Of a DNA stretch of 64,000 nt, positions 48,416-64,000 are shown piece after piece; positions within the stretch are counted from its first letter, which is position 1, and every line of letters starts with the position of its first letter. The notes under the pieces are model-generated. The model ran no database searches, was not told the origin of the DNA, and saw only the letters and a program-made list of their open reading frames with translations. A program made the translations under genes and the position numbers. The stretch is from Bacteroidaceae bacterium (lineage in GTDB: Bacteria > Bacteroidota > Bacteroidia > Bacteroidales > Bacteroidaceae). The stretch spans positions 1,138 through 65,137 of the forward strand of contig JAZNDZ010000005.1 of the NCBI GenBank assembly GCA_045588345.1. Direction: 5' to 3'.

Positions 48416-48420
48416 TTCCT

Positions 48421-49689
48421 CTAATTATTTTCGTACGGTATCAAAACATATCCTCTATCTGTACCTTTGCTTACAGAACTATCCTTACGATATACAACAT
48501 AAATAGTATATGTTGACGACTTACTTAAGTTACTCAATGTCACGGTTTTGTAATTATACAAGTTTGTACCTGATGAAGGGCTTCCTTTAGTTGTAGTATA
48601 ATTTGAACTAGTTGTAGGTCTTGAGTCCTTACCAACCATAACATAATCATGATCAGACTCACCATTACTGCGGATATAGAATGTAAATGTATCATACCCC
48701 TTGATTGTAAAATACATTGTTGCTTCAGAATTATCTTTATTATAGTTGCTAGAAGATTGATAAGCTCTATATAAAGTACTTGGTGATATCATACTAGTCC
48801 ATTGGTAATTAGTAGTGATATTTATTTCCTTTCGAGTATAAAACTCTTTTGCATTTCTGTAATATTCAGCTGCTTTTTGCTTTAATGCATCAGTCGTTTT
48901 TGCTCCATATCCATATTTAGATTTATTATTATCGTACTCTTGAATTTTACTATTTGCAGCAGACATCAATGAGTTGAATGACTCTTCTGTCATGTTACGA
49001 TAATTTGCCATCTCATTGACTTTTGATTCAACTTGATAATAATGCGAATTACCGATATTAGACTTTACAGCTGCTAGTTTATTTGTCAAATCTGTACAAT
49101 TTGACAAAGGATCCATTGTCCTATACTTTTCAGCATTCTGTATCTTTGTATTGGCATCGCTCACAGAATAGAATGTAGAATATGTCGCTACTTTCTTTGC
49201 TTCCTTATAGTTGCTAATAATCTGTTCTATTCTGCGAAGATCAGTCTCATATGAACCCGCAACTGCACTAGTTTCCCCATAATCAACTTTTAATGTTCTT
49301 AGATGTGCTATACGCTCAAGCATAGCTTTATGGTCAGACTCACGCCAAGTTGATGCTCTGAACTTTGCATGACTTAATTTCGTGAAGATAGGCAGATATT
49401 TCTGTACTAATGCTTTCGTTTGATAATCAATTTCTTCGTCAGTCATAAAAGCCTCACTCTTATATAGAGCAAGTTTGTCAACAACAACATTATATATCGA
49501 ATCATTGAAAGCAGTGTTCTCCGTTTCAGAAAAACCGTTGATATTAGCTTCAAGAGAAGATTTATGCAAATTATTTACCGTAACATCCACAGGAGGTGCC
49601 ACAATCGTGGGATAGAAAGCAAGAATACCCGCAATTGCAAATGCAATAACGATTCCTAGAATAAGGATTTTTTTACCAGTATTTTTCAT
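48421..49689 (-). CDS. Hypothetical N-terminally membrane-anchored protein (operon gene 8)
   Basis: 422 aa with one N-terminal TM (ILILGIVIAFAIAGILAFYP), a helical middle and a beta-rich C-terminal ~100 aa. Its start overlaps the gene 7 stop (ATGA). Confidence 0.6.
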   Translation of the reverse strand: MKNTGKKILILGIVIAFAIAGILAFYPTIVAPPVDVTVNNLHKSSLEANINGFSETENTAFNDSIYNVVVDKLALYKSEAFMTDEEIDYQTKALVQKYLPIFTKLSHAKFRASTWRESDHKAMLERIAHLRTLKVDYGETSAVAGSYETDLRRIEQIISNYKEAKKVATYSTFYSVSDANTKIQNAEKYRTMDPLSNCTDLTNKLAAVKSNIGNSHYYQVESKVNEMANYRNMTEESFNSLMSAANSKIQEYDNNKSKYGYGAKTTDALKQKAAEYYRNAKEFYTRKEINITTNYQWTSMISPSTLYRAYQSSSNYNKDNSEATMYFTIKGYDTFTFYIRSNGESDHDYVMVGKDSRPTTSSNYTTTKGSPSSGTNLYNYKTVTLSNLSKSSTYTIYVVYRKDSSVSKGTDRGYVLIPYENN

Positions 49690-51035
49690 AACATATCTCC
49701 TTGTTTTGTTTTTGACTTCTGTTGCACTTTAGGTTGACTTTTCTTTGTCGTACTTGTTGTACTAGTTTTCTTAGTCTTATGAGTCGTTCCTGCATCCTCG
49801 AGCGCTTTTATATAACCTTTCTTATCGCCATCAGGCTTAATAGTTATATCGAAATCATTAGGATGTGTATTAAAGTTACCAGAGAAAGGCTTATGACGAT
49901 TTTTGGTTATCGCAGCTACCAGTTCTTTGAATATTGCGGATTTGCCAAGAACATTCTCATAGGCCAGTATATCATCAAAACGTCTCTCATTCATTGCATC
50001 CCACAAACCTTTTAGCGGTTCGTGTTTTTCCATCTCAGTTCTGTTCCAGACATTATTATGGTCTATATATGAGATCGCTGCATCTACTAATTTTTCATCA
50101 CTATTACTCTCTGAACCTTTTGGTGCATAATTGTAGTTGCGTTTTTCTAACTCCTTAATGCGACTCTTCAAATCAGCATTTTCTTTCGTTAATTTGCCAA
50201 CTTCTTGATTATCTGCCTTACCTCCAATAAAGTCGTTTAAAGCATAACCACCGCAGATACCGAGCAGTAGGACTATTATAGAACATATCAGGCATGTAAT
50301 CCAGAATTTGCGAGTGAATGGCTTGAATCGCAAGTAATTTTTATCATTGCGTGTAACATATCCATTTTCTGTTACATAGCCTTTCACAGGCGAATTTTTC
50401 ATTTTTCTATTGCCAGATATCTTAATTGGGTAATAGCCCTCTTCATTTTTGAGAGGCAATAGAAACTCATATGCATATGTCTCCTTTACTAATTTTAATT
50501 GTACAGGTTGTGTTAAATTCAAATGACCAGAAATTGGTTCAAAACCTTCAGCATGAATTTTTACCCAAACATTATTAAGAGTTGCTTCGCTAATGCGTAT
50601 ATCTTCGTTTTTACTAATACGCTGCTTCGCTACATATAAGTCGTAATCAGTTACACGTTGACTCCATTCATCAACTACTTTTATGTAATTATAGTTAAGC
50701 ACTCTAACATATTGATTAGGTGTTGGAACAGAATACTTTGCGCCAGGCGCAATTATACTCTTCGTATGGATAGGCATATACCCATCTCTTCTCCATTCAA
50801 TATCTATCGTACCTCCTTCAATGGCATAAATCTGTCCAACAAAAGGTCGCTCTCCAATATAGGGAACAAAAGAATCTATTTTCCCAGGTGATTTTACTAC
50901 TACCATCGAGTATACTTTCTGGTCTGACAAGTTATCTCCTTGAAGGCATTTTAACTTCGATGAATTATCTAATAGGAATACACTCTTATAACTCTTATAA
51001 TATGATTGACACATATCTTTTAGAAGCTCAGACAA
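49686..51035 (-). CDS. Hypothetical bitopic membrane protein (operon gene 7)
   Basis: 449 aa. Beta-rich N-terminal ~235 aa, a central TM (FWITCLICSIIVLLLGICGGYAL), a coiled-coil (LTKENADLKSRIKELEKR), a C-terminal globular part and a Lys/Thr/Ser-rich tail. Confidence 0.6.
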   Translation of the reverse strand: MSELLKDMCQSYYKSYKSVFLLDNSSKLKCLQGDNLSDQKVYSMVVVKSPGKIDSFVPYIGERPFVGQIYAIEGGTIDIEWRRDGYMPIHTKSIIAPGAKYSVPTPNQYVRVLNYNYIKVVDEWSQRVTDYDLYVAKQRISKNEDIRISEATLNNVWVKIHAEGFEPISGHLNLTQPVQLKLVKETYAYEFLLPLKNEEGYYPIKISGNRKMKNSPVKGYVTENGYVTRNDKNYLRFKPFTRKFWITCLICSIIVLLLGICGGYALNDFIGGKADNQEVGKLTKENADLKSRIKELEKRNYNYAPKGSESNSDEKLVDAAISYIDHNNVWNRTEMEKHEPLKGLWDAMNERRFDDILAYENVLGKSAIFKELVAAITKNRHKPFSGNFNTHPNDFDITIKPDGDKKGYIKALEDAGTTHKTKKTSTTSTTKKSQPKVQQKSKTKQGDML

Positions 51036-51053
51036 TGTGTACTTTGCTCCTTG

Positions 51054-51494
51054 TCAATAGTATCTGAATGCACACTTTTCGCCATTGCTTTTTGTAGTGA
51101 TTCTAGATGCAGGTGCTGATTCATATGTTTTCGAAAGAAGTTGGGTTAATCTTTCATCATTTCTTTCGTTAGCAAGAATCTCTTTTTTAACAGCATCTAC
51201 TATTTCAACAAGTTCCTTTCCTGCAATATTAATTGAAGCAGGAACATATATCCATGCGCTAATACAATCAGTGATACGACCCTCAATAAGCGAAGCTACA
51301 GTTAATATGTGTCCAGTATCAATGCTTGTAAGCATTAGTACTGCTGATGAACCATCCAAGTTATCAATGTTCTCAAGGTCTTTGCGGATATCCCAGACGT
51401 TCTTAGTCCATACCTGGTCTCCGTTTATTTCAAATAAATCTGTATAACCCTGATTTATACGAACTATCTTTAAACCTAATTTATTATTATCCAT
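51054..51494 (-). CDS. Small soluble protein, possibly Roadblock/MglB-like (operon gene 6)
   Basis: 146 aa, starting 6 nt after the GTPase gene. The stretch LDGSSAVLMLTSIDTGHILTVASL resembles the Roadblock/LC7 core pattern. This is a weak assignment made by eye only. Confidence 0.55.
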   Translation of the reverse strand: MDNNKLGLKIVRINQGYTDLFEINGDQVWTKNVWDIRKDLENIDNLDGSSAVLMLTSIDTGHILTVASLIEGRITDCISAWIYVPASINIAGKELVEIVDAVKKEILANERNDERLTQLLSKTYESAPASRITTKSNGEKCAFRYY

Positions 51495-51500
51495 AGTTTG

Positions 51501-53147
51501 TTACTTTTTTAATATGTCAAACAAGTTCTTAATCTTTCCAGGTTTGTATCCATAAGACCTCTTAATGAGTGTTCTAACAACCGTTGCTGCTGTATCTTCT
51601 TTGAATTTACAGTAGTTCTGGAAACATACTGTACCTAACGTAAATGGCTGGATCTCCACATTACCACCATTTATTTCATTGTCCTTACAAATCTTCTTCA
51701 AACCATTATAGAAGCCTTGATAGTTCTCAGAGATATAGTTTCTCAGTTTTTCCTGCAACTCCTTGCCCACAGCTTTTGCTTTATCAACCTTAGTAATAAG
51801 GAGATATAAGCCATCTGTGTCCTTTTTGAAAATTCCTGTTCTCTGGATATAAGCCACAGCTGCTTCTAGATAGATATTTTGAGGCAGACCTTCATACTCT
51901 CTGTCCTCAGCACCATACTCTATCACAAAGAAATGAATCTTTCGGTTATCAGTTCTGTTATCAATTAATATGTTGGTCAATGTCTTAAGAACATTCTGCT
52001 GCTCATCTGTCAAAGGCTCTCCGGCGTCTTGCTTATACATACATCTAACAAGCTCACCTGCGAGGTCAATACATGTAATTGGATGCTCTTTTCTGTCTTC
52101 ATCTTCGAGAATAAAACCCATTTCATAAGTAGATGATATTGCGGTACCCTCAGGTAGTGTACCAACAGCACCATTTGTCTTGAATAGATTAGCCAATCTA
52201 TTCATATATCCGTAGCCCTGACAATCTGGGTCACGTTGCATGCTTTTTGCAACTCTACCACTATTAGCAGAACTCAAAATTGCACCTAATGCACAACTTT
52301 TACCAGATGACGGAATACCCCAAAAGTAAACTTCTGTACATGGAGACTTTGTAATCTTTGTTATTGGTTCAGGAGTTTGGAATTTCTGAGGAGTGATATT
52401 AGACATCATGTGTGCAATGAAATCGCCATCAATCCCCGCTCTTGAAAAGTCTGATATAATTCCGTTCTCCCACAACAAATTTGCAACCGTACCGCTAATG
52501 AAGTTATTATCCTCTGAGATAGCAGAAAGAAGGTCATCTACACTAATTTTGCCCGTATTAATGCAGTTGACTATTCTATCATATATAGCCTTCTCTGGAT
52601 TATTAATTCTAGCATCTGTACGTATTGCCTTAATCTGTCTTGCAAGAGCTCGGATATCAACTCCTAGATATTGTTCTCTGCGCAACTCTCTTAAAAGGCG
52701 TGTGGCTTCTGCAAGGTAAGTACTATTAGGATGATTGTCTACAAAATTTTGCAGTTCAGTAATACTTCCTTTGTTAACGCTATCCCAAATCTCATCACTG
52801 GCGCCACTTTCCGCCAATTTCTGCAGTTCCTCAATTCTATCACGGGCAGAACTTCGATATTCGCCTTCTGGATACGAATCAAGGTAATTTTGGTATGCCT
52901 CTTCTGTATTAATGCGTTTGGCTTCTTCCCAGTCTTCCTCTTCGCAGTTCGCAAATTTCTCAGCGACCTGATCCTGTATAGACTTTTTTACAGGTGTACC
53001 TGCTTCTCGAGCCGCATCTCGAAACTCTTCAAAACTCTTTATTCCGGCCTGTTTCAAGGCCTTTACTAGGTCATCGATGTTGTTGCTGTACTCATCGATA
53101 TTATCAAATATAGTATCTAAATCAATCATATTATTGGAATTTTTCAA
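51501..53147 (-). CDS. P-loop GTPase with Ras-like G1/G3/G4 motifs and a helical N-terminal extension (operon gene 5)
   Basis: 548 aa. G1 GIPSSGKS, G3 CIDLAGE and G4 ITKVDK appear in canonical order and spacing. The N-terminal ~270 aa are helical, with two similar segments (YQNYLDSYPEGEYRSSARDRI and LQNFVDNHPNSTYLAEATRLL). Confidence 0.7.
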   Translation of the reverse strand: MKNSNNMIDLDTIFDNIDEYSNNIDDLVKALKQAGIKSFEEFRDAAREAGTPVKKSIQDQVAEKFANCEEEDWEEAKRINTEEAYQNYLDSYPEGEYRSSARDRIEELQKLAESGASDEIWDSVNKGSITELQNFVDNHPNSTYLAEATRLLRELRREQYLGVDIRALARQIKAIRTDARINNPEKAIYDRIVNCINTGKISVDDLLSAISEDNNFISGTVANLLWENGIISDFSRAGIDGDFIAHMMSNITPQKFQTPEPITKITKSPCTEVYFWGIPSSGKSCALGAILSSANSGRVAKSMQRDPDCQGYGYMNRLANLFKTNGAVGTLPEGTAISSTYEMGFILEDEDRKEHPITCIDLAGELVRCMYKQDAGEPLTDEQQNVLKTLTNILIDNRTDNRKIHFFVIEYGAEDREYEGLPQNIYLEAAVAYIQRTGIFKKDTDGLYLLITKVDKAKAVGKELQEKLRNYISENYQGFYNGLKKICKDNEINGGNVEIQPFTLGTVCFQNYCKFKEDTAATVVRTLIKRSYGYKPGKIKNLFDILKK

Positions 53148-54152
53148 TTACATAGTGAATGAACCGTAATCGCCTTCGTTTGAAGAGGAATCATCATCCA
53201 TACTAAATGTCATATCATCTTCAGGGCGGTCAATTTTGCTAGTTTTCTTAGACTTTTTGCGTTTGGGTGTATATGAGTCACCTTCAGAGCCAATGAGTCT
53301 AAATGTACTTTTGGTATTTCTACTTTGAATGATGTACGGAAACAAAAGCAATATATATAGTAGGACTCCAATACCAATTGCAAGCATTGATGGGGTACCC
53401 ATTGTTGTGTACACAGAGCGTAGATTATTTAGGTTCTCCTTAGCCGTTGTTACACTTGGATCAGAGGATGAGAATGGTTCGACTCCATTGGGTTCGTCTG
53501 ACATAATTTTACCAGAGAATTCACTTAGCGAGTTATTCCAATTTTCAATAGCGCCTTCAATCTTTTTGATGTTGCCAATCATAAAGACATTCCATACAGT
53601 CGCCCCTGATGCATTATCAATCCACTGAACCGCTGATTCTTTCAAAGCATTATAATTATCAGCAATCAATTGCAGTCTAAGAGCCTCTACTTCGTTAGTT
53701 CTATGAACAGTCTTTGTTTTATTTTGAGCCAATTTCTTGTCATACTCCTTTATTCTATTATTTGCGTAGACCTCATAAGATTCAAACATACCCTTTGTTG
53801 TCTTTATAGACTCTGAGAAAGTCTTTTCTACTTGACTTCGGTTATCAAAAACTGTCCAAAAGTGAGCATATGGGACCATTACCGCAATAAAGGACAAAGG
53901 TGCAGAGAAGAAAAGAATACGCTCAAAAACGAACTTTCTGCAAAATTTCTCATCAGCCCCTTTCAAAATTTGAGGTATGATGAAAAATATAATCAGTACA
54001 AGATTGATTATCAACACGCCCAATCCCGCATACAGGAAATCTCCATCAGTCAAATATGTGATTCCCATAAATGAGACATAACTGATAAATATCAGTGCAA
54101 TAAATGCAATGATATGTCCCCATGAAAATTTTAATGTTTCATTAATTGCCAT
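53148..54152 (-). CDS. Multipass membrane protein (operon gene 4)
   Basis: 334 aa. Three N-terminal TM helices, a ~150-aa loop, a fourth TM (MLAIGIGVLLYILLLFPYII) and a charged tail. Its stop abuts the gene 5 start. Confidence 0.65.
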   Translation of the reverse strand: MAINETLKFSWGHIIAFIALIFISYVSFMGITYLTDGDFLYAGLGVLIINLVLIIFFIIPQILKGADEKFCRKFVFERILFFSAPLSFIAVMVPYAHFWTVFDNRSQVEKTFSESIKTTKGMFESYEVYANNRIKEYDKKLAQNKTKTVHRTNEVEALRLQLIADNYNALKESAVQWIDNASGATVWNVFMIGNIKKIEGAIENWNNSLSEFSGKIMSDEPNGVEPFSSSDPSVTTAKENLNNLRSVYTTMGTPSMLAIGIGVLLYILLLFPYIIQSRNTKSTFRLIGSEGDSYTPKRKKSKKTSKIDRPEDDMTFSMDDDSSSNEGDYGSFTM

Positions 54153-54161
54153 ATATCGTCC

Positions 54162-57140
54162 TTATTTATTTTCAGGTAATAATTTTTCAAGTTCACTTAT
54201 CTTTCTCTTATAGGATTCTATTAGTTTTCTAATAGAATCGTAATCTGTTCCATCATTCTCATCTTCAGATGTTGGCGGAGTTGTTTTACCATTATCATTT
54301 CCCGGATCCTTAGGACTTGGTTTGTTTCCAGGATTATGTACATCTTGGCCTGGCGTTTTACCAGTATCGCCAGGATTATCTCCATCTACATTGCCACCTG
54401 TTTCTCCTGAATTCTCATTGACTGGTGATTCTCTATCGATTGGGTTATTACCAGAACCTCCATCCACTACATTAGGATTTGTAATTTCGTTATTGGCATT
54501 ACCATTTGTGTCTGGGAGTTCTGGTATCACACCTGTTTTCAACGCTATTAGAGCATCGTCAACTTGAATCATAGGTGGCATATAATCAGATGCTCGCTCA
54601 CCAGTTGCCTGTAAAATATGAAGTACTTCTGTCACCGAGATATCTTGGTTTAAACTCTTCATTAATGCTACCGTACCTGCAACTATTGGAGCAGCCATAC
54701 TTGTACCATCAAATACGGCATATTCATTGACGGGTATAGAACTATAAATGCCCTTACCTGGAGCAGAGATGTTAGAACCTCTACCATAATTGGTGAAGTC
54801 TGTACCTTTTATTTGCCTATCAACAGCAGCGACATTTACGGTGAAATTCGTTCGATTCTCAGGAGGAATGTTTGCGAGTATATTGTCATTACCTACTGCA
54901 AAAACGATTATCACATTATGCTCATTTGCGACATTAATAATACGTTTCCACACACGCTCTTCGTTTTTGAATTGAGTTTTAGCAATATAATCCTGGTCTG
55001 GGAGAGGTAGTATATCTAGTCCTCTGAAATTCGGACCAATAGATACATTTACAACATTCGCTCCATTGTGAATGGCGTACATTATTCCGCTTGTTACTGA
55101 CGAAAATGTACACATACCATTGTCAAATACCTGTATTGGCATTAGTTTACATTTAGGCGCAACTCCAGATACGCCTTTGTCAAACATCTTATCAGAGCCA
55201 ACTGGCAATCCAGCTACGTGTGTACCATGTCCCTGGCCAACACTTAATCTATTATCCTGAGTAAACACATTGTAAGGGCTTACAATTCTTCCTTTAAGGA
55301 TATCATGTGTTGCATCAATACCATCATCAACAACTGCTACGGTGATATTTGGGCTTCCCTTAGTAATTTCCCAACCTTCTTCTACATCAATTGCATCAAG
55401 ATGCCAGCCTATATTTGCTGTATCCGTACTAATATCGCCAACAATGGTAAAAATTGACTCATCAACTATGAAAAACTCATAGTTTGGAAGCTGTGCATTC
55501 AAACCCTCTCTAATAGCGTCTCGCATATTTTCAGAAATAAGAATCTGTATCATTGTCACATTCTTATCAAAGCCAATGACTTGACACTCATTTTCTGAAT
55601 ACATCTTAGAAAGGTCTGATATAAACTGTTCAAGGTCTACATTCGCGTCTTCAAAGTATATATTTAGCCTATTTGCAACAATATCTGGCGTCCCAGGATT
55701 TGAAACAATAGGAGGCTCTTTGCCGTCATCCCCTACGATAGGTGCTACGACATTATTATTAGGCAACTTGCCATCATCACCAACAATACCCTTGACAGGT
55801 CCATTGTTATCAATAACACGCCCGTCATTTGTCTCAATTACAGGTGTAGGCTCTACTGGGCCACCGCTTTCACATGATCTTAAAAGCCATGACAATAAGA
55901 ACAGCAAAAGTAATAGGAGTAACAACCACAATAGCCACTTTAAACATCCTTTACCTGTAAACCAAGCCCATAAGCGCTTATACCATGGTATGTCCTTTTC
56001 ATATTGAGCTGTAAATGTTGTATCACCATTCAAAGTGTAATCAATCGGTGACTTGTCCCAACCTATAAACTTATAACCTCGTTTAGCCTTAATTGCCGGG
56101 GTATTATCATTATTGAATATTGAACCATAAGGCAGTGTAAAGCAATCTGTACCCTCAATTGAACCGTGTTCACCAGCGACAAATTGACATGTTACATTAT
56201 CTCTATTGAAGATAGCAGTGAAAGTTGCATCCTCATAGATAGCTCCCAAATCGGGCTGAATATCCCAGCCAACGAAAGAATAACCGTTATTAGGTACAGC
56301 CGATGGAATTTGCATTACATCTAGATATGTCCCCTTCTCTATGGAGCATTCAGTTGTTCCACTCAATGAGCCGCCAACACCTGCTAAGAAGGTAATATGC
56401 ACATTTTCTTTTTCTGCGGGAACATCATCTTCAATAGGTGCCTCATCATATAGTGCTGTAAAAGAAAGAAGTCCATTAACCTTCATACCCAATGGATTTG
56501 GATCCCATCCCTTAAATACATATCCCTTCTTAGGAGTTACGGTAGGCAGATCAATATTTGATAATGTGGCACCATCAGGGCGACTAACAACCCCAGCTAA
56601 TTTATCTGTAAGAGTGCCATTTTCTCCTACAATAAAACGTACTTTGTGATTGCTTTGAATCTTTAAATCATGTATTACTGCACCCTTCACGACATGTTTG
56701 TGAGAGTCAGGCGACATACCCCAAGCAACTACTACTACTTTTTCATCATAGCAGAACATAAAGTCCTCATCAATATACTTGAGGGCACCTGTTAGAATCT
56801 GCTTATCCTCACCTGTCAGATTTTTACGTACTTTTTCATATGCTGCAATTGTTTTTTCTTTTATCGCAGCATACTTAGCCTTATCAACATCTGATAAATC
56901 ACTATATGCACACGGTGTATGATTCCACTCGCGCACATACCATAATATCTGATCCTCATCTGAATATATAGGATGAGCTAGAAAGTCTCTATATTGAGGC
57001 TCTACATTCTTCTCAACTACTGAATATACGCTGTCAAATCTCTTGTACAGCGGATCGCGACCGATTCCTTGGAAATCGGTAAAATCAGTAACCTCTGTGT
57101 AACAGAGTTTTCTCTTGCCATATAGAGTATGTTCTGCCAT
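54162..57140 (-). CDS. Membrane-anchored subtilisin-like (S8) serine protease with an N-terminal domain and three Listeria-Bacteroides-type repeats (operon gene 3)
   Basis: 992 aa with no signal peptide. Repeats GYVFKGWD, GYSFVGWD and GYKFIGWD; TM WLLWLLLLLLLLFLLSWLL; S8 triad contexts VAVVDDGID, GHGTHVAG and GTSMAAPIVAG; then a low-complexity N/G/P-rich tail ending in a coiled coil. Confidence 0.8.
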   Translation of the reverse strand: MAEHTLYGKRKLCYTEVTDFTDFQGIGRDPLYKRFDSVYSVVEKNVEPQYRDFLAHPIYSDEDQILWYVREWNHTPCAYSDLSDVDKAKYAAIKEKTIAAYEKVRKNLTGEDKQILTGALKYIDEDFMFCYDEKVVVVAWGMSPDSHKHVVKGAVIHDLKIQSNHKVRFIVGENGTLTDKLAGVVSRPDGATLSNIDLPTVTPKKGYVFKGWDPNPLGMKVNGLLSFTALYDEAPIEDDVPAEKENVHITFLAGVGGSLSGTTECSIEKGTYLDVMQIPSAVPNNGYSFVGWDIQPDLGAIYEDATFTAIFNRDNVTCQFVAGEHGSIEGTDCFTLPYGSIFNNDNTPAIKAKRGYKFIGWDKSPIDYTLNGDTTFTAQYEKDIPWYKRLWAWFTGKGCLKWLLWLLLLLLLLFLLSWLLRSCESGGPVEPTPVIETNDGRVIDNNGPVKGIVGDDGKLPNNNVVAPIVGDDGKEPPIVSNPGTPDIVANRLNIYFEDANVDLEQFISDLSKMYSENECQVIGFDKNVTMIQILISENMRDAIREGLNAQLPNYEFFIVDESIFTIVGDISTDTANIGWHLDAIDVEEGWEITKGSPNITVAVVDDGIDATHDILKGRIVSPYNVFTQDNRLSVGQGHGTHVAGLPVGSDKMFDKGVSGVAPKCKLMPIQVFDNGMCTFSSVTSGIMYAIHNGANVVNVSIGPNFRGLDILPLPDQDYIAKTQFKNEERVWKRIINVANEHNVIIVFAVGNDNILANIPPENRTNFTVNVAAVDRQIKGTDFTNYGRGSNISAPGKGIYSSIPVNEYAVFDGTSMAAPIVAGTVALMKSLNQDISVTEVLHILQATGERASDYMPPMIQVDDALIALKTGVIPELPDTNGNANNEITNPNVVDGGSGNNPIDRESPVNENSGETGGNVDGDNPGDTGKTPGQDVHNPGNKPSPKDPGNDNGKTTPPTSEDENDGTDYDSIRKLIESYKRKISELEKLLPENK

Positions 57141-57144
57141 ATAC

Positions 57145-59988
57145 TTAATTATTTATATATAGGGTACTGCTAGTGTCAATTATGTCTTTAATAGCTGCAT
57201 TTGCTACTGAATCAACATGGGAGATATCACTGGCGAATAGTAATCCTATCGTAATAAAGTTCTCCCAACGCTGGTAACTATCCCAGAATGGCAACTTTTT
57301 TAGTGTCGCTAAATCAATGCGAGAATTGTTCATCTCATCTCTTGATTGATCAAGAGCCGAAAGGACTTCTAATAGAGGCTGAGGCTTTATATTCGAACTT
57401 GATGCTGCCGGGGACAAATCAATCTCCAAATGGCATGATTTTGCCTTTTGTGCAATATTTGCCATATCCTTTTCTGACATATATTCTCGACCTACTGTGC
57501 TAACAAAGTTATTTAATGTCAAAGAGGCATAATCAGCTATTGCATTAGGGAGTCCATTTCTATCAAAAACATCGTAATATCTATTTATCTTATCCGAAAT
57601 AGCTCGCTTAACACCAAGTTTGTTCAATAATGTTAGAATCATGAATGCTATCTCATCTGCATGAGGAAGCACATCGCCCATATTTTTTACTTGTTCGTTA
57701 ATATGGTTATTCCAATACTCAATGATGTGTTTAGCGATAACATCGGGGACAGTGGCTAGTAATTCACTTTCATCAGATATTACATCCTCTAATGTGACAC
57801 CCATTTCGGCAAAGAACGATTTTAATTCACTCTCTTCCTTATTGTATCTCTTGCAGAGTTTCTGGATATTAGTAGACTTATCATCGTTAATATCAATCTC
57901 ACAGAATGCACGAATCATCTTAATAGATGACACGCTCTGCGGTTCCTCAATATGACGAACTATGATGTCGTATGCAATGGTTCGAATGTCTGCAGACGAT
58001 ACCATCAAATCATCAATGATACGACCAAATCTTTCAGGTTTTTCACCAAAAGCAAATTCAGTCCTTAGTTTAATGTCTCCTGTAATTTGGCGTATTCTCA
58101 CATTGTTTTCTTCCTTGTCATCAGACTCATAGTAAACGCTTAACCTATTGATGATTTCATCGCGTATTTCTATAAGTTGCTGCAAGTATCGTTCGTGTCT
58201 TGCGTCATCAAGCACTTCGGCTATGGCATCAAGATTCCTAATGATAGCCTTAGAACCATCATTGTTAATTGTTGCTACATCATCCCAAGCTTGTTGAGGT
58301 TTAGCAAAATGCTTTTTAACAAAGGGATTTGCTAGGAAACTTTCTCTCAAATCGTCAAAATATCCCGGGTATTCATCGAATATATGGACACTACTCTCGG
58401 TAGTTCCCTTTTGCTCATTATATCCGTCAAACACTTGGTTTTTAGAGGACCAATAAAAGTCTCGAAGCAAATATACATTTTGGAAGCAAGGAGATGTAAA
58501 TGAGCCTCCTAGAGACACCCATTCATCAAGCCACTTCTCGGGCTCAATAATTTTTGGAATTGTAGTATTGAACCTTGCCCAGTGGTTGTCTAACTTTGAG
58601 GCTGACTCAGGCGTATCGTTCTTCGTTTTTTCAAGGTCAATGTTGAACTTTGTACAAATCAAAAACAGAGGTGCAATACCATTTGTCCTTGATAGTACAT
58701 TGGCTCTAACATCAGGTGTTTCACCGATATTATCCTCAATCCAATTATGTATAGATGCTCCAATTGTAGGTTCAGTCTTTTGGTCATTATGATGACAGAA
58801 GAGTACTGAACTAATCTTCAAAGAACGAGAGTACTTATTAAATAAATAGGCGACTTTTCCTCTTCGAAGAATCGTGGGCAGAACTTCTCCCAACTGCTGT
58901 TCCTTGATTTTTTCTCGGGATCGTGCACCCGGAAAATCCAATAAATCAATCTTCTTCAGGAATTTTCTTTCTGTTGCGATATCCTCTGGCAATACAAAAG
59001 TTAATTCTCCGATTAAAGCAGAGAGGTATGCTTTACTAAAATCTTTTGCAATAAGTTCGCCTTCACGATTATATACGTCTGTATAAAGGACATCATCATT
59101 AGACTCTTTATGAATACCACATACCGAATCAAGCCAATCAATCTTAAGCAATGTACCTTTATCTCTTAGTACTGCGTCGAACGGCACATACACTTCAGTT
59201 AAAAAGTCTAATTTTTTGTACTCATTGATAAGGGTACTGAACAATCTGTTTAACTCTGGATTATTATTCCATATAAGGCCAAAAATATTAACCCAGTTAT
59301 CGCTTGCTACATAACTAATAATAGGGGCAATAATTTTGCAAAAATTTGACTTGCAAATATTTGCAGCATTATTTCCAATGATATCATTGAGATAATCACA
59401 AATATCTCTTATGTCATCCTCAGTAATAATATTGTGAGCTGGCGACTTCCCACTCCACAATTCTTTCATTTGAGACAGAGAATTATCTATATCAGTGTTG
59501 AGCATAACACTATCCGTGTTAATCTTAACATCGTTATAATAAGAGTCTGCCAATAAAAGAATGATATCGACTACTGACAAGTTTGTGATTTTCACATAGT
59601 CAGCCATCTTCTTATTACTTTGCCTAATTGTAAAGCGAGTTATAACACCAGTAGATTCCTGTTTGGTATTATTGCCTCCGCTAGGATTAATCTCATCAAT
59701 AAAACTATAGCGAACGCCATTATTCTCAATAACAAATGGAGCATCTGGCGTTGACAGAAGGCTACTCATCAGATAGGATTTTCCGACCTGACTCTCACCA
59801 TATGCTGCAGCAGAACAGTTCTCCGAGAGAGCTTCTCCAATCCTTCTCAGCTTTCTGCGATAATTCTTAAACACTTCCCTTGGGAATGAGTCTTTCTCGT
59901 ATTTATCTGCCCAAGCAACTGATTGCTTGATAACTTCGAGGTTAGTAATTATATCTCTTGTCATATATGCCAAATTCAATTTATTCAA
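57145..59988 (-). CDS. SrfC-like large P-loop GTPase (dynamin-like) (operon gene 2)
   Basis: 947 aa. Walker A/G1 GESQVGKS (residues 64-71), candidate G2 GVITRFT, G3 LLDFPGARSRE (DxPG as in dynamins), candidate G4 CTKFNID, and a long helical C-terminal half. Confidence 0.65.
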   Translation of the reverse strand: MNKLNLAYMTRDIITNLEVIKQSVAWADKYEKDSFPREVFKNYRRKLRRIGEALSENCSAAAYGESQVGKSYLMSSLLSTPDAPFVIENNGVRYSFIDEINPSGGNNTKQESTGVITRFTIRQSNKKMADYVKITNLSVVDIILLLADSYYNDVKINTDSVMLNTDIDNSLSQMKELWSGKSPAHNIITEDDIRDICDYLNDIIGNNAANICKSNFCKIIAPIISYVASDNWVNIFGLIWNNNPELNRLFSTLINEYKKLDFLTEVYVPFDAVLRDKGTLLKIDWLDSVCGIHKESNDDVLYTDVYNREGELIAKDFSKAYLSALIGELTFVLPEDIATERKFLKKIDLLDFPGARSREKIKEQQLGEVLPTILRRGKVAYLFNKYSRSLKISSVLFCHHNDQKTEPTIGASIHNWIEDNIGETPDVRANVLSRTNGIAPLFLICTKFNIDLEKTKNDTPESASKLDNHWARFNTTIPKIIEPEKWLDEWVSLGGSFTSPCFQNVYLLRDFYWSSKNQVFDGYNEQKGTTESSVHIFDEYPGYFDDLRESFLANPFVKKHFAKPQQAWDDVATINNDGSKAIIRNLDAIAEVLDDARHERYLQQLIEIRDEIINRLSVYYESDDKEENNVRIRQITGDIKLRTEFAFGEKPERFGRIIDDLMVSSADIRTIAYDIIVRHIEEPQSVSSIKMIRAFCEIDINDDKSTNIQKLCKRYNKEESELKSFFAEMGVTLEDVISDESELLATVPDVIAKHIIEYWNNHINEQVKNMGDVLPHADEIAFMILTLLNKLGVKRAISDKINRYYDVFDRNGLPNAIADYASLTLNNFVSTVGREYMSEKDMANIAQKAKSCHLEIDLSPAASSSNIKPQPLLEVLSALDQSRDEMNNSRIDLATLKKLPFWDSYQRWENFITIGLLFASDISHVDSVANAAIKDIIDTSSTLYINN

Positions 59989-59991
59989 CCA

Positions 59992-62900
59992 TTAAAAATC
60001 AAATGCTCCAGAATCCAACCAATATTGATCATCAACACCCAAACTCTGAATGTGAATCTCAATACTGCTATCAGACAATTCAACTCCATTTCTATCTTTG
60101 ATAGAGCTAATAGTTAGATTCTCCTTATCTTCAGGATCACGGTCTATCGTAATCTTAAATGGCATTCGTTTTTTGAAACCCTCTACCTCGTCATTCGCCA
60201 TTGACTGAACAGCTGCATCTGAAGGATTATACCCGTTATCCAATGCTTTATTACGAATTTTGTTTACCAATTTCATATAGTTAAAGTCAATGGAATACAG
60301 CGCCCTTGACGGATAACTGGTCAAGCCGAATTGACGAACATTTAAGATATCAGGGATTCGGCTTACAGTCAGTTCTCCCTGCAACTTATCAGGAGTAATT
60401 AAGTACTCAATAGGCTGGCCATCTCTTGATGCTTCAATATAGTTGACCGTAGACTTCAGATTGCTCTTGAGTTTCTCCAAATTAATGGAGAACTTATCAA
60501 GATTAGAGTACTCGGAAGCATAATGGCCAATTACACCTCCCATAGCCACTATGGTCTTTGGATTGGTGATATATCCAGTGTTTTGACAGAAAGGGTACCA
60601 ATCACCAACATAGTAGTTGTTTAGAGTTATAAGTCGATTTGGCGATACAGGATAGTACTTTAAGAAGATGTTTCGTATTGCTGGTAACGATGACGGTCTT
60701 CCTGACAGTAAAATCACATCACAGGAATAAGCAAAGAACATTGTGGCAATCTTCTTCAAAAGTGGTTCAAACTCCTTTGAAATAATATCGGCTACGAACT
60801 CCTTATTGTACTCCCAAGTAAGAGATGTGATGTCTATTCCCATCCTTCTCTTAAAGTCGTCTATTACGCGTTGGTTAGGTTGGTTAACCTTAAATACATC
60901 GTCATACTTAACTATACAACTACAGCTATCATTTGATGCCAACTCCAAGAAATATGTCATCAACGGGATAGAATACTGTATATTGAAATCGCGCCTTGCA
61001 ATGCGATCGGCAATAGTTTGACCATTATAATCTGGGCCAAAGAAATTCTTAATCTTTTGCCTATACTGTATTGGGTCAAGACTACGAAGAGCCTTGCGGA
61101 AAGCACTATGCTTTTCGTCAAGCAACATCACATTCTTGACTAAGGCCTTGAGCATATCATCGCCTGCAAAATAGAAACTATCGTAAAACTTTGGATCCGG
61201 GGTAATGGTAGTTAAGTCACCTTTTGTGAAAGAGTATTCGCTAATCATCAAATCGGATGTTCCTGCTCCAATATCCAATGAACCAACTGTAAGTGTAGGT
61301 TGCTGATTACCATCCACAACCTTTCCGTACAAATTAAAGAATTCGCTACATACGCCTTTGTATTTATGGCCTACCTCGCCATAAATATACACGAGTTGAG
61401 CGCAAGTCGCTTCATCATAATACCACGAGCCATCATTATCCTTCATTGAACGTACAGCTGGTATAATATCGATGGCAGGAGCTCCATTGCCGTATATAAA
61501 TCTGCCATACAATGTAACAGCATCTTTAGCACATTTCACAAGGGCCTCTCTCTCAATCTTGGACATTGCGGTCGGGCAAGTAATAATTATTCGCTTTATC
61601 TTGCGTGGAACTGTTTTCCAGCCAACATCAATTCGATATGGCTCACTATTAATCTGGCTATTAGCCTGCGAGAGCATCTCCAAGAAGGCAAAGGTCATAA
61701 GGCTCCTTCTAGAGTAATGTGAAGAGCGCCCACCATCAGTACCTGTCACATCGATTCGTCCATCGCTCATAAGATTGGAACTAATGCCTCGAATATTAAG
61801 TATGTGATTAGACTCTTCACCTGGAAGAACTAAAAATTCCCACTCCTTTTTGCTTGGCTTATTATCCCACAAGTATCTTTTAGGACTTGAGTATGTTGAC
61901 AATGTCTCCTCTTCCCATGCTGAACTACAAGCGCGATGTATAAGGGCGCTTGCTTCCTGACCAAGTCTGATAAAGCTAGGATACACAAATTGCTTGCTAT
62001 CATTAATGCCAAAAGAGCCGAAATCAACTCTTCTAAAGGCTAAACGCATGTCGAAAGGTTCGTTGTAAGAACGGATACGAACTTTGTCATCTTTTTCCTG
62101 TAACAAATCCGTGTAATCAATTAAACTTAAAGGCTTAACTTGATTAAAATTCGAATTATCTTCAATCAATAATGCAGTAGTTCTAGAATTGCCAATATCT
62201 ATTACCATATCAACATTTCTAACTTCGACATCTTGGTCTTTGTACAACTTTATAGCTGGGAATAATTTGTTTTGAGCCAAATAATTCACCAAGAAAATGT
62301 AAGATGCAATGTAAGACATCTTGTGAGTATTTGCGCCCTTGATTTGCGACACACTGCTGAGTGTAGGATGAACCAATTTGAAAATATACTCATCAATATA
62401 GCTCCAATTCTCCTTTGGGGAACAATAGTCCATCAAGAAAAACTCGTTGTCGCATAACGCAAAATTCATCTCAGAGCAATACTGGTCAGGGAATACCGGA
62501 AACTCATTATATTCATCAGACGAATAACCAGCTCTTGTATCAAACGCGAGAATAACATCGTATTCAAGTTCGGTTTTACCTTCACTTCTAGGCACAAACT
62601 TAACTCGAGACCAGTTCATTGGGCTAAACTTAAAGCGCTTCTCTGTTCTTTTGAAAAAGTATGGAATAGGAATCCATTTATTCTCAAAATTCTTTAATGC
62701 GTTATGTTTGTCAGAGAAAGTCAACTTATATAGCTCTCCTCTGACTCCGTTGCACATTTCATCATCAATCTTGAGAGAATTGATTCCGTCATTTCGCAAT
62801 TCTATAGGATCATATTCGATTGTTGGGTCGTTCAGATAGCCTCCATCGAATAATTCGTGCTTGTCGTAAAACAAAACATTATCATCGGTAGCAACTTCAT

Positions 62901-63042
62901 GGGCAAGGTCCAATCTCCATTGCCCATTACTTGTGTCATACCATTCTCGGAACCACATTTTAAATTTATCCTGAGTATTCAATTTAAGTCTGAATGTCAG
63001 CAATTGAATACCTGAATTCGCTATCAATGAGAAGCTGTCCAT
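59992..63042 (-). CDS. SrfB-like protein with an actin/Hsp70 (ASKHA) ATPase core (operon gene 1)
   Basis: 1016 aa. The N-terminus SLIANSGIQLLTF resembles the SrfB family start as I recall it. ASKHA motifs occur in order: VIDIGNSRTTALL (phosphate 1), ITCPTAMS, DEATCA, LDIGAGTSDL (phosphate 2) and ILLSGRPSSLPAI (adenosine). Confidence 0.7.
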   Translation of the reverse strand: MDSFSLIANSGIQLLTFRLKLNTQDKFKMWFREWYDTSNGQWRLDLAHEVATDDNVLFYDKHELFDGGYLNDPTIEYDPIELRNDGINSLKIDDEMCNGVRGELYKLTFSDKHNALKNFENKWIPIPYFFKRTEKRFKFSPMNWSRVKFVPRSEGKTELEYDVILAFDTRAGYSSDEYNEFPVFPDQYCSEMNFALCDNEFFLMDYCSPKENWSYIDEYIFKLVHPTLSSVSQIKGANTHKMSYIASYIFLVNYLAQNKLFPAIKLYKDQDVEVRNVDMVIDIGNSRTTALLIEDNSNFNQVKPLSLIDYTDLLQEKDDKVRIRSYNEPFDMRLAFRRVDFGSFGINDSKQFVYPSFIRLGQEASALIHRACSSAWEEETLSTYSSPKRYLWDNKPSKKEWEFLVLPGEESNHILNIRGISSNLMSDGRIDVTGTDGGRSSHYSRRSLMTFAFLEMLSQANSQINSEPYRIDVGWKTVPRKIKRIIITCPTAMSKIEREALVKCAKDAVTLYGRFIYGNGAPAIDIIPAVRSMKDNDGSWYYDEATCAQLVYIYGEVGHKYKGVCSEFFNLYGKVVDGNQQPTLTVGSLDIGAGTSDLMISEYSFTKGDLTTITPDPKFYDSFYFAGDDMLKALVKNVMLLDEKHSAFRKALRSLDPIQYRQKIKNFFGPDYNGQTIADRIARRDFNIQYSIPLMTYFLELASNDSCSCIVKYDDVFKVNQPNQRVIDDFKRRMGIDITSLTWEYNKEFVADIISKEFEPLLKKIATMFFAYSCDVILLSGRPSSLPAIRNIFLKYYPVSPNRLITLNNYYVGDWYPFCQNTGYITNPKTIVAMGGVIGHYASEYSNLDKFSINLEKLKSNLKSTVNYIEASRDGQPIEYLITPDKLQGELTVSRIPDILNVRQFGLTSYPSRALYSIDFNYMKLVNKIRNKALDNGYNPSDAAVQSMANDEVEGFKKRMPFKITIDRDPEDKENLTISSIKDRNGVELSDSSIEIHIQSLGVDDQYWLDSGAFDF

Positions 63043-63140
63043 ATTTTTTACTTTTAACTAAACTTCAATTGTTGTGATTTTTTTTGCATCTCCTAACAGG
63101 AGATAGATTATTTTACCTAACAAATCGTAAGTTTATATGC

Positions 63141-63167
63141 AAAAAAGGAGCTCGCTCCCGAACTCCT
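63141..63167 (-). terminator. Terminator after the integrase gene, upstream of the operon
   Basis: The minus strand reads GGAGTTCG-GGAG-CGAGCTCC (one mismatch) followed by TTTTTT, 24 nt after the integrase stop. Confidence 0.55.
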
Positions 63168-63190
63168 CTAAAAAGCAGCAATCATAGCTT

Positions 63191-64000
63191 TCATAATAAT
63201 TTTAGTATTTTCTTATTGGCTTTGTCTATTACATGCGTTTCCAAAGAGGCCAGATATATCTGTGTAGTACTCTCAGAGTCATGTCCCATAGCTTCACTAA
63301 TAACAGATATTGATATTCCTTCATTTCTTGCAATACTTGCCCACGAATGGCGCGCAACATACATTGTCAATGGTAAGTTCAACCCCAACTCTCGACCAAT
63401 CGCTTTTAAGTTATGATTTATAAGTGTTAAAGCATTATGATACTGTTTTCGAGTATTCTTGGTAGGGTCTTTTATAATCGAAAGAAGAAATGGAGAAGTC
63501 AAGGATGAGTATTGATCAACAATCTTTTGCATACAATCTTCCCAATGGATAGATAGTAGTTGCCCTGTTTTCTTTCTTCTGTATGTCAGAACATCATCTG
63601 TCAGATTCTTCTTTTGCAAGTACGCTATATCCACAAATGACATACCTCGTGTATAGAAACTGAACAAGAATATATCACGAGCGAAACTCTTTGATGGAGA
63701 ACAACTCAGATCCAAATCTTTTAATTTGCGAACAAACTTCAACGGGATAGCTCTCTTAATAGTTTTTTCAGATGATGTAAACACCTTTTTGAAAGGATTC
63801 TTATTCTCCACATAACCATCTTCTACAGCATTATTATATATCGCCCGTAAGCGTTTCATATAGAAAGAGATTGTGTTGGGAGCCAATCCCTTCGCTCTCA
63901 AATGATACTCATACGAAATAAGCATTTCCGAATCAATACCATCAAAGCATACATCTACACCTTCCCTAAACTTCCTAAAACTATTAAGAGTTGCTTGATA
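63191..64000 (-). CDS. Tyrosine-type site-specific recombinase/integrase; N-terminus lies off the window
   Basis: The frame stays open upstream of the track Met to base 64000 (...YQATLNSFRKFREGVDVCFDGIDSE-MLISYEYHL). A SAM-like domain is followed by the catalytic region ARHSWAS...GH...TQIYL. Confidence 0.85.
   Translation of the reverse strand, partial: YQATLNSFRKFREGVDVCFDGIDSEMLISYEYHLRAKGLAPNTISFYMKRLRAIYNNAVEDGYVENKNPFKKVFTSSEKTIKRAIPLKFVRKLKDLDLSCSPSKSFARDIFLFSFYTRGMSFVDIAYLQKKNLTDDVLTYRRKKTGQLLSIHWEDCMQKIVDQYSSLTSPFLLSIIKDPTKNTRKQYHNALTLINHNLKAIGRELGLNLPLTMYVARHSWASIARNEGISISVISEAMGHDSESTTQIYLASLETHVIDKANKKILKLL

Follow-up and report, generated by a model that had tools for sequence, protein, structure and literature searches.

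An SrfB-family protein with a predicted Hsp70-like ATPase core in a permuted srfABC-type cassette of a Bacteroidaceae bacterium

The window analysed here is a 64,000-nucleotide stretch of DNA from a Bacteroidaceae bacterium (GenBank assembly GCA_045588345.1, contig JAZNDZ010000005.1, positions 1,138 to 65,137), and our subject is srfB, the first gene of a tightly packed minus-strand operon, as had been proposed before, together with the genes that accompany it. The original prediction, which was made from the sequence of the window, had placed five motifs of actin/Hsp70-type ATPases in a given order at 59992-63042 and had named no strand. All five are present in that order on the minus strand, and the plus-strand translation of the same interval is riddled with stops. 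The gene and its nucleotide-binding motifs, with residue numbers in amino acids (aa) of SrfB, are as follows.

59992-63042, minus strand: srfB, an intact open reading frame (ORF) of 1016 codons plus stop, encoding the 1016-aa SrfB-family protein
62179-62199, minus strand: PHOSPHATE-1 loop D282-I-G-N-S-R-T288, in the predicted hairpin 275-282 / 288-293, in register with DnaK GIDLGTTNS
61867-61899, minus strand: S382-TYSSPKRYLWD-N394, in which K388 and R389 align with the catalytic K70 and R71 of DnaK (subdomain IB)
Strand 480-488 and helix 495-520 of the AlphaFold2 model, minus strand: CONNECT-1, IIITCPTAMSKIEREALVKCAKDA
61402-61416, minus strand: catalytic glutamate motif D543-E544-A-T-C547, with E544 corresponding to DnaK E171 (NEPTAAA); DEATCA opens the predicted helix 544-560
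61252-61275, minus strand: PHOSPHATE-2 motif D590-I-G-A-G-T595-S-D597, in the predicted hairpin 583-591 / 596-606, corresponding to DnaK D194-LGGGT199-FD201
60685-60702, minus strand: ADENOSINE motif G781-R-P-S-S-L786, after the predicted strand 776-780; GRPSSLP corresponds to DnaK VGGQTRMP

The SrfB protein and its predicted fold

To judge from its sequence, the window protein is an ordinary, intact member of a known and annotated family. The Pfam SrfB model (PF07520) matches it over its full length at E=2.3e-218 with 728 bits against a gathering cut-off of 27.1, aligning aa 3-1014 with positions 11-991 of the 992 positions of the hidden Markov model, which bears out the family membership that had been suggested on the strength of an SrfB-like N-terminus. 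That N-terminus is itself characteristic: the segment 'LIANSGIQ' is near-invariant in the family, and the Pfam match begins at residue 3. More than 1,500 SrfB homologues are found in public protein sets, and several of them, including a 91%-identical Paludibacteraceae protein, carry the NCBI name 'virulence factor SrfB'.

The five motifs lie at aa 280-292 (VIDIGNSRTTALL), 487-494 (ITCPTAMS), 543-548 (DEATCA), 589-598 (LDIGAGTSDL) and 777-789 (ILLSGRPSSLPAI). We examined their conservation in an alignment of 83 SrfB sequences that fall into two clades, 66-91% and ~40% identical to the window protein. The invariant columns comprise D282, I283, G284, N285 and T288 of the first motif, T488, C489 and P490 of the second, D543, E544 and A545 of the third, D590, G592, A593, G594, T595 and D597 of the fourth, and G781, R782, P783, S785 and L786 of the fifth. 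Because these columns remain invariant down to ~40% identity, the motifs are not chance matches. The columns of S385-D393 are invariant as well.

An AlphaFold2 model of SrfB built from this alignment has a mean predicted local distance difference test (pLDDT) score of 83.2 and a predicted TM-score (pTM) of 0.83, and its low-confidence stretches are limited to residues 375-400 and 1002-1006. When the model was compared with the PDB using Foldseek, the top 50 chains were all members of the Hsp70 family with a probability of 1.0, and 202 chains were matched at E<=1e-3. DnaK (4b9q) is the best match at E=4.4e-14; the others include BiP, Ssb, Hsc70 and Hsp110, and the E values for DnaK, BiP, Ssb and Hsp110 range from 4e-14 to 1e-10. 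A chain that consists of the nucleotide-binding domain (NBD) of Hsp72 (5mkr) gives a target-normalised TM-score of 0.62. Among the viral predicted structures of BFVD, Hsp70 homologues of giant viruses and closteroviruses lead the list. No actin, ParM, MreB or FtsA chain appears among the top 50 PDB matches. As modelled, SrfB has the two-lobed, actin-like ATPase fold (ASKHA); of the original description, that of an actin/Hsp70/ParM fold, the ASKHA assignment holds and the likeness to actin and ParM does not, the model being specifically Hsp70-like.

The predicted protein consists of a β-rich N-terminal domain (aa 1-~270), an Hsp70-like NBD (~275-849) and a C-terminal α/β domain (~850-1016). About 275 residues precede the first ASKHA strand, in agreement with the ~270 extra N-terminal residues previously estimated. 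The C-terminal extension is also real but shorter than the ~200 residues first given, measuring about 170 residues after the last NBD helix. The 'large insertions' of the earlier description have to be revised in part: the region aa 324-444 contains the motifs YPSFIRLG.EA and SSPKRYLWD, and since these align with DnaK subdomain IB, part of what had looked like an insertion is subdomain IB itself.

The motifs PHOSPHATE-1, CONNECT-1, PHOSPHATE-2, ADENOSINE and CONNECT-2 occur in SrfB in the canonical order, at conserved positions, in the expected hairpin or helix context and in register with DnaK. D282 is the counterpart of DnaK D8, and the PHOSPHATE-1 loop is conserved in proteobacterial SrfB, in which PHOSPHATE-2 takes the form DIGGGTTD. 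For residue mapping we used low-stringency hhalign, in which SrfB 271-850 aligns with the DnaK and HscC pair at an E value of about 0.01 and a probability of 4-6%, collinear with DnaK 4-387; probabilities against HscC or the pair were 3-6% throughout, and these alignments served for residue mapping only and not as evidence of homology. The ADENOSINE motif is the sole segment aligned when the comparison of SrfB with HscC is left unforced. The mapping adds four correspondences to the five motifs: (i) YPSFIRLGQEA with TPSIIAY..LVGQPA, (ii) SSPK388R with FAIK70R, which contains the catalytic lysine, (iii) AG627DD with GG229ED and (iv) TN827PKTIVAMG with VN366PDEAVAIG. The second of these, as SSPKRYLWD, is nearly unchanged in eight divergent SrfBs, K388 being replaced by arginine in Rahnella; the local pLDDT around S382-N394 is low (~50-56).

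All nine Hsp70-type motifs are kept in the SrfB proteins of Klebsiella, Rahnella, Cereibacter, Lelliottia and Runella and in those of a Saprospiraceae and a marine Bacteroidetes metagenome-assembled genome (MAG). Because proteobacterial SrfB shares them, the Hsp70-like core is a property of the whole family. On the strength of the model, SrfB proteins form a family of Hsp70-type (ASKHA) ATPases that have diverged strongly yet retain every catalytic motif; the complete motif set attributed to the window protein is genuine, yet it is family-wide and no peculiarity of this gene. From the residue correspondence to DnaK we infer that the motif residues line the interlobe cleft and that SrfB would hydrolyse ATP.

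The likeness to Hsp70 may extend beyond the NBD in the model, in which full-length Hsp70s align with SrfB over ~170 more columns and outscore NBD-only chains. At the sequence level, neither SrfB aa 846-1016 nor the N-terminal domain shows similarity to the substrate-binding domain (SBD) of DnaK or HscC. The Pfam scan reported only the SrfB model for this protein at E<0.01 and no match to HSP70 (PF00012), and general family scans of the window proteins found no J domain, GrpE-like protein or nucleotide-exchange partner in the cassette.

The permuted cassette

The operon headed by srfB comprises nine tightly packed minus-strand genes (eight if a pair split by a stop is counted once) with gaps of -4 to +18 nt. 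Its second and third genes complete a trio that we compare below with SrfABC.

57145-59988, minus strand: srfC, a 947-aa SrfC-family (Virul_Fac) protein, Pfam PF10139 at E=3.6e-101
54162-57140, minus strand: srfA', a 992-aa bitopic protein with Pfam Peptidase_S8 (2e-42) and Flg_new matches, examined in an alignment of 23 orthologs
56676-57140, minus strand: SrfA-N-like domain of srfA' (aa 1-155 of 992), with an invariant W140 in a conserved 'AWGM'
55881-55937, minus strand: single transmembrane (TM) helix of srfA' predicted from hydropathy (aa 402-420)
54600-55349, minus strand: S8 subtilase domain of srfA' (Pfam, aa 598-847), predicted to be periplasmic

srfC begins 3 nt after the srfB stop and runs in the same direction. 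Its product carries the GTPase motifs G1 (GESQVGKS, aa 64-71) and G3 (DFPG, aa 351-354), and G64-S71 and D351-G354 are invariant. In a Foldseek search, an AlphaFold2 model of SrfC with a pLDDT of 69.8 matches the bacterial dynamin-like protein BDLP (2j69) at E=4.6e-6 with a probability of 1.0, and then Fzo1, mitofusin-1/2, dynamin, Drp1 and MxA, the mitofusin and Fzo1 matches having probabilities near 1.0. According to this model, SrfC is a dynamin-like large GTPase of the BDLP/mitofusin class with helical stalk regions and predicted GTPase activity. A profile of SrfC found only spurious nanobody framework matches among PDB sequences. SrfC matched no dynamin or Eleos model in PADLOC, where its only match was a marginal one to LmuA (E=0.006), and neither SrfB nor SrfC had a match in PHROGs.

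The third gene encodes, in order, an SrfA-N-like domain, one to three Listeria-Bacteroides (Flg_new) repeats, a TM helix, a propeptide-like segment, an S8 protease domain, a low-complexity linker and a conserved C-terminal coiled coil. Charges flanking the TM helix (+5/-2 in the 21 aa before it and +1/-4 in the 20 aa after it) predict an N-in, C-out topology. The catalytic triad of the protease, D605 / H641 / S814, is intact, and its residues, which lie in the contexts VVDDGID, GHGTHVAG and DGTSMAAP, are invariant in the 23 orthologs.

The operon had been described as lacking an obvious SrfA. This description does not hold: hhalign aligns residues 9-149 of the third protein with residues 3-148 of SrfA at a probability of 98.0% (E=2.1e-13) when a four-sequence SrfA alignment is used, at 96.7% (E=3.6e-10) with Klebsiella SrfA alone and at 69% (E=4e-5) with an unannotated Rahnella gene upstream of srfB. 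By sequence comparison, the N-terminal ~150 aa of the third protein are homologous to the N-domain of SrfA. No window protein matches the NCBIfam SrfA model (NF040486) at E<0.01, and SrfA looked absent because its N-domain is too divergent for that model. The gene directly upstream of srfB is a tyrosine recombinase, not SrfA. Enterobacterial SrfA carries a periplasmic lipocalin (bioRxiv 10.64898/2026.09.18.752743); the window cassette is srfB-srfC-srfA', the SrfABC trio in permuted order with the lipocalin swapped for an S8 protease.

The remaining members of the operon are the following.

53148-54152, minus strand: 334-aa membrane protein with four predicted TM helices, its place in the gene order conserved in ~33 loci
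51501-53147, minus strand: P548, a 548-aa protein with a BamD/YbgF-like TPR N-terminus and a P-loop, its place in the gene order conserved
49686-51494, minus strand: sixth cassette gene, split into same-frame ORFs of 146 aa and 449 aa by a stop at 51054-51056
47654-49689, minus strand: two further ORFs of 422 aa (N-terminal TM anchor) and 253 aa (signal-peptide-like N-terminus), with gaps of -4 and +5 nt

The four-TM protein had no match in Pfam, NCBIfam, PADLOC or PHROGs. P548, which matches no catalogued family, displays the GTPase-type motifs G1 (GIPSSGKS), G3 (DLAG) and G4 (TKVD), with G277, G282, K283, G364, E365, K453 and D455 invariant, and its profile finds a lipoprotein/BamD-like chain in the PDB (9hiv_D, 2.9e-6). 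P548 was considered as a close paralogue of SrfC, and both it and the 334-aa protein as homologues of the hypothetical protein that follows srfC in proteobacteria; these relationships were rejected after comparison. In 99%-identical relatives (contigs L054 and L055) the sixth gene is called as a single 596-aa ORF with one TM helix, and the stop in the window replaces a glycine (RYY*QGAK versus RYYGQGAK); it could be a nonsense mutation, mark a pseudogene or reflect a sequencing error. The 422-aa and 253-aa ORFs, which found no family match in scans that included PADLOC and PHROGs, are probable members of the operon. Farther on, at the low-GC boundary of the island, a 470-aa ATPase_2 / DUF234 ('archaeal ATPase') gene lies on the opposite strand (45971-47383, plus strand).

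Recurrence, exchanged domains and mobile setting

We surveyed 47 genome loci that encode SrfB, nearly all of which are labelled Bacteroidota; four carry other labels and are possibly mis-binned. The order SrfB, SrfC, SrfA'-S8, four-TM protein, TPR-P-loop protein recurs wherever the flank suffices, that is, in about 35 of the 47 loci, and most Bacteroidales loci also keep the sixth gene. The five-gene order persists in the marine Bacteroidetes MAG, whose SrfB is 39% identical to that of the window, and four of the five cassette genes match in the Saprospiraceae MAG at 34% SrfB identity. The arrangement, which had been called unusual by comparison with proteobacterial srfABC, is standard across Bacteroidota and thus nothing out of the ordinary in that phylum. 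On plasmid pSP2_1 of Runella sp. SP2 (L048, 1-31150), the cassette starts with SrfB-SrfC-S8 and continues with hypothetical genes, and it is preceded, at a distance of ~1.3 kb, by a complete BREX system (brxC, methyltransferase, pglZ, brxL).

Proteobacterial plasmids have the order SrfA-SrfB-SrfC-hypothetical-vWA, with an ABC transporter next in Klebsiella and Cereibacter and an FGE-type enzyme in Klebsiella. The accessory genes of the Bacteroidota and proteobacterial versions are unrelated, while the association of SrfB with a dynamin-like GTPase is conserved across phyla. On a Klebsiella pneumoniae plasmid of a widespread type (L050, 5758-22074), the canonical srfABC is part of a longer co-directional block that reads glycine-zipper protein, hypothetical protein, 'tellurite resistance domain' protein, SrfA, SrfB, SrfC, hypothetical protein, vWA, ABC ATPase, ABC permease and SUMF1/FGE-type enzyme.

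The SrfA N-domain (SrfA-N) is found in other company as well. A plasmid of Cereibacter azotoformans (L051, 2582-5728) carries two SrfA-N-containing genes directly upstream of srfB, one of which encodes a 622-aa protein in which an SrfA-family N region is fused to a trypsin-like MarP/HtrA (S1) serine protease, so that SrfA-N is also coupled to a protease of another fold than S8. Exhaustive searching with the SrfA-N domain of the window returned 176 representative clusters in which the domain is always N-terminal. An S8 domain is present in 24 of the 59 that were scanned, and single representatives among P0361-P0510 carry a papain-like C1 protease, OmpA, vWA or IgGFc-binding-like domain; many of the shorter entries may be truncated by contig ends. 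These combinations suggest that SrfA-N acts as an adaptor for interchangeable outputs, among them S8, S1 or C1 proteases, lipocalin, OmpA and vWA.

The cassette block (about 46-64 kb of the window) has a GC content of 34-40%; the interval 36-46 kb has 40-48%, and most of the window up to ~36 kb has 45-53%. Upstream flanks vary among genomes, except that a same-strand tyrosine recombinase recurs in about a dozen loci. Two features of the window belong to this upstream region.

63191-64000, minus strand: 3' part of a tyrosine recombinase gene (Pfam Phage_integrase and Phage_int_SAM_5), its frame open to the window edge
63088-63104, read on the minus strand: solitary recombinase-type site ATCTCCTGTTAGGAGAT, the counterpart of the srfB-proximal arm of the relatives' invertible element

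In the three contigs whose SrfB is 99% identical (L054-L056) the recombinase measures 401 aa, and the window copy is cut only by the window edge. Ahead of the recombinase, these contigs carry CTnDOT-type genes for TraG, TraJ, TraM, DUF4138/TraN, TraO, TraQ and lysozyme (L054:1-9667; L056:126-5380), and the cassette would therefore be cargo of an integrative conjugative element (ICE). Together, the low-GC block and the conjugation genes of near-identical relatives point to such a location.

The spacer between recombinase and srfB contains inverted repeats of 15-20 nt, perfect in most cases, in all nine genome loci with a full-length recombinase (L004, L015, L019, L020, L023, L026, L033, L042 and L045) and in the three 99% contigs (L054:9754-9957; L055:1389-1592; L056:5467-5670). 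The arms are palindromic half-sites around an asymmetric core in all but L004, and a sequence resembling (A)TCTCTTnnnnAAGAGA(T) is shared by the arms of L054-L056 and of eight of the nine genome loci. The enclosed segment measures ~130-260 nt (mostly 147-178 nt, and 172 nt in L054-L056), and two loci have two tandem units. The segment contains a Bacteroidetes -7 box, TAnnTTTG. In 10 of 11 cases the box faces away from srfB and in one it faces toward it, and the three 99% contigs also have it facing away. To judge from these sequences, the repeats, the box and the recombinase have the signature of a recombinase-driven invertible, phase-variable promoter that was assembled mostly in the OFF orientation. 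Scanning for sigma-70 promoters told us nothing useful, the genome being that of a member of the Bacteroidetes.

The corresponding spacer of the window (63043-63190) measures 148 nt, as opposed to 333 nt in the 99%-identical relatives. Alignment to these relatives shows that it lacks the 172-nt invertible segment, the second arm and any detectable TAnnTTTG box. The ATCTCCTGTTAGGAGAT site occurs once in the window, where 0.13 matches are expected by chance. An invertible promoter in the window was considered and rejected, there being one site only, with the adjacent 35 nt collinear with the pre-arm region of the relatives and not with their invertible segment. The loss could be a real deletion, a locked state or an assembly artefact.

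A proposed membrane machine, rival readings and known systems

Considering (i) the Hsp70-like model of SrfB, (ii) the dynamin-like model of SrfC and (iii) the predicted topology of SrfA', we favour the following explanation, to which, taken as a whole with the identifications given above, we assign a probability of roughly 0.7: an Hsp70-like ATPase, a dynamin-like GTPase and a membrane adaptor would form an inner-membrane machine that actuates a swappable periplasmic effector. SrfB with ATP and SrfC with GTP would assemble at the inner membrane by binding to SrfA-N on its cytoplasmic side, which is consistent with an AlphaFold3 model of Haemophilus SrfA-SrfB-SrfC in which SrfA is the platform (bioRxiv 10.64898/2026.09.18.752743). 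Turnover of ATP and GTP would then cause membrane remodelling or a conformational change through the TM segment, by which the periplasmic effector domain would be activated, released or packaged, and SrfA-N would couple interchangeable outputs to the same two NTPases. The Bacteroidales module would be accessory cargo of a conjugative element, phase-variable in close relatives. This accessory, mobile and phase-variable character suggests a costly conflict or envelope function rather than a housekeeping one.

One rival reading is anti-phage defence or abortive infection, in which SrfC and SrfB would sense infection or membrane damage and switch on the periplasmic protease so as to block infection or kill the cell. 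This reading addresses what the system is for and can be held together with the mechanistic core; it draws on analogies to Eleos (LeoABC dynamin-like defence), with which SrfC shares a predicted dynamin fold, and to ietAS (ATPase and S8 protease), to whose IetS the S8 domain is weakly similar. The cassette travels as accessory cargo of mobile DNA, its expression in relatives is predicted to be phase-variable with OFF as the default, as for many costly defence loci, a BREX system adjoins it on the Runella plasmid, and a few flanks hold Type I and III restriction-modification genes and PADLOC candidate genes. However, no PADLOC 2.0 model matches SrfB, SrfC (beyond the marginal LmuA match) or the other non-protease members, the S8 domain matches there only IetS and generic subtilase models, the similarity to IetS is limited to about 100 aa of generic S8 core, and the flanks of 24 loci (121 flanking ORFs) hold mostly housekeeping or conjugation genes with no systematic enrichment of defence; we consider this role unlikely, if still worth entertaining. 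Another rival is a secreted tripartite toxin of the kind reported for Xenorhabdus stockiae SrfABC, the three proteins leaving the cell, possibly in vesicles, and attacking eukaryotic cells or competitors in concert. Vesicles often carry proteases, and a dynamin-like SrfC could drive vesiculation. Cytotoxicity of recombinant SrfABC toward insect and HeLa cells has been reported (PMC6950479), and vesicle-mediated export has been argued in a 2026 preprint (bioRxiv 10.64898/2026.09.18.752743). Yet neither SrfB nor SrfC shows a signal peptide or TM segment, both possess every catalytic motif needed to work on nucleotides of the cytoplasm, SrfA' is membrane-anchored, and the hosts are commensal gut Bacteroidales and environmental Bacteroidota. 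Moreover, effector domains are exchanged around a conserved pair of NTPases, a pattern that suits a machine with variable outputs better than a fixed three-part toxin, and an exported toxin is in our judgement improbable.

Two further readings concern SrfB. As a dedicated chaperone or maturation factor, it would only fold the large S8 pre-protein or hold it until export, and the system would neither remodel membranes nor act in conflict. An Hsp70-like fold and a client with a propeptide-like segment would suit this role, which is nonetheless difficult to square with the lack of sequence-level similarity to the Hsp70 SBD, with a cassette in which no J-domain or GrpE-like partner was found, with non-protease outputs (lipocalin, OmpA, vWA) served by the same SrfB/SrfC pair, and with the GTPase association that is conserved across phyla; we hold it to be quite improbable. 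That SrfB polymerises into an actin/ParM-like cytomotive filament to segregate or position DNA or a cellular structure is hardly credible: the ASKHA fold and the carriage on mobile elements and plasmids would allow it, but the leading PDB matches described above are all Hsp70s and none is actin, ParM, MreB or FtsA, Hsp70-specific motifs (the equivalents of TPS, IKR, NEPTAA, GGEDFD and NPDEAVA) are conserved, and in place of a centromere-binding adaptor SrfB has a dynamin-like GTPase and a membrane protease as its obligate partners.

Several observations weigh against the membrane machine that we favour. The comparison of SrfB with Hsp70 by sequence is not significant (hhalign probability 3-6%), and searches of PDB sequences, whether by phmmer with the single sequence or with a 15-sequence profile, returned nothing meaningful and no Hsp70, so the claim about the fold rests on the predicted model. 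Within that model, the region equivalent to K70 (aa 375-400) has a pLDDT below 60, and for SrfC the quality of the model is no more than moderate (pLDDT 70), its C-terminal third being poor. Flg_new repeats are usually extracellular and would be cytoplasmic under the N-in topology. The mechanism as a whole is derived from predicted folds, topology and gene order. In the only experimental literature, SrfABC is a cytotoxin and not a membrane machine (PMC6950479), a report that does not fit easily with two NTPases in the cytoplasm and a partner anchored in the membrane. Finally, the window copy lacks the invertible segment and has a stop in its sixth gene, and its cassette may be inactive or decaying.

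SrfABC is labelled a 'virulence factor' in many bacterial genomes, and the papers we found give no molecular mechanism for it. Each core component now has a testable identity: SrfB as an Hsp70-type ATPase with named catalytic residues, SrfC as a dynamin-like GTPase and SrfA-N as a membrane adaptor, the Bacteroidota version being the same system in permuted form. We found no paper that calls SrfB Hsp70-like or SrfC dynamin-like; the ASKHA fold may already be listed in Pfam clan, InterPro or ECOD assignments. If the proposed machine exists, a single bacterial membrane machine would combine an Hsp70-like ATPase and a dynamin-like GTPase, a pairing absent from these papers, and a widespread 'virulence' annotation would be re-framed in commensals. 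The most far-reaching version, in which SrfA-N, SrfB and SrfC constitute an undescribed class of inner-membrane machine with exchanged periplasmic outputs and, in gut Bacteroidales, an ICE-borne, phase-variable conflict system, directed against phages or bacteria, and not a 'virulence factor', is tentative and, on present evidence, doubtful. Relative to srfABC as described, new elements are (i) the permuted order B-C-A' with a cryptic SrfA-N::S8 fusion, (ii) the adaptor role recognised for SrfA-N, to which different periplasmic domains can be joined, and (iii) ICE carriage with an invertible promoter in Bacteroidales.

Among known systems, the invertible promoters of Bacteroidales resemble the upstream region of the relatives, in which inverted repeats and a TAnnTTTG segment lie just downstream of a same-strand tyrosine recombinase; the window differs in keeping one arm without the invertible segment, and inversion in the relatives is predicted from the sequence signature. 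In ietAS, too, mobile DNA encodes an S8 subtilase together with an NTPase, and the S8 domain of the window is weakly similar to IetS (E=6e-8, 5e-7), but the window has no IetA homologue and its protease is membrane-anchored and fused to SrfA-N. With BDLP, DynA, LeoABC/Eleos and mitofusins, SrfC shares a predicted large-GTPase fold with helical stalk regions and the G1 and G3 motifs. It differs from bacterial dynamins and mitofusins in lacking a sequence-level match to PADLOC dynamin/Eleos models or PDB sequences and, from bacterial dynamins, in having as its partner an Hsp70-like ATPase instead of a second dynamin, P548 being no close SrfC paralogue. SrfB resembles the NBD of Hsp70/DnaK in its predicted fold (Foldseek probability 1.0, E=4e-14) and in nine collinear motifs that include the equivalents of D8, K70, E171, D194, T199 and the adenosine loop. 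Unlike Hsp70, it has about 275 extra N-terminal residues, enlarged subdomains IB and IIB and a C-terminal domain without detectable SBD similarity, and no J-protein or exchange factor was found nearby.

The closest counterpart is SrfABC of Salmonella, Xenorhabdus, Haemophilus and Klebsiella plasmids. The window differs from it in the order B-C-A' instead of A-B-C and in an SrfA homologue that falls below NF040486 and carries Flg_new repeats and a periplasmic S8 domain in place of a lipocalin. The hypothetical protein, vWA, ABC transporter and FGE of proteobacteria are replaced by unrelated four-TM, TPR-P-loop and 596-aa proteins, family scans of the downstream cassette genes of the window having found no vWA, ABC or FGE matches. 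In close relatives the cassette is, in addition, ICE-borne and predicted to be phase-variable. Common to both systems are a full-length Pfam SrfB match, an adjacent SrfC-family gene, a domain homologous to SrfA-N on a bitopic membrane protein and the same Hsp70-type motifs in both lineages.

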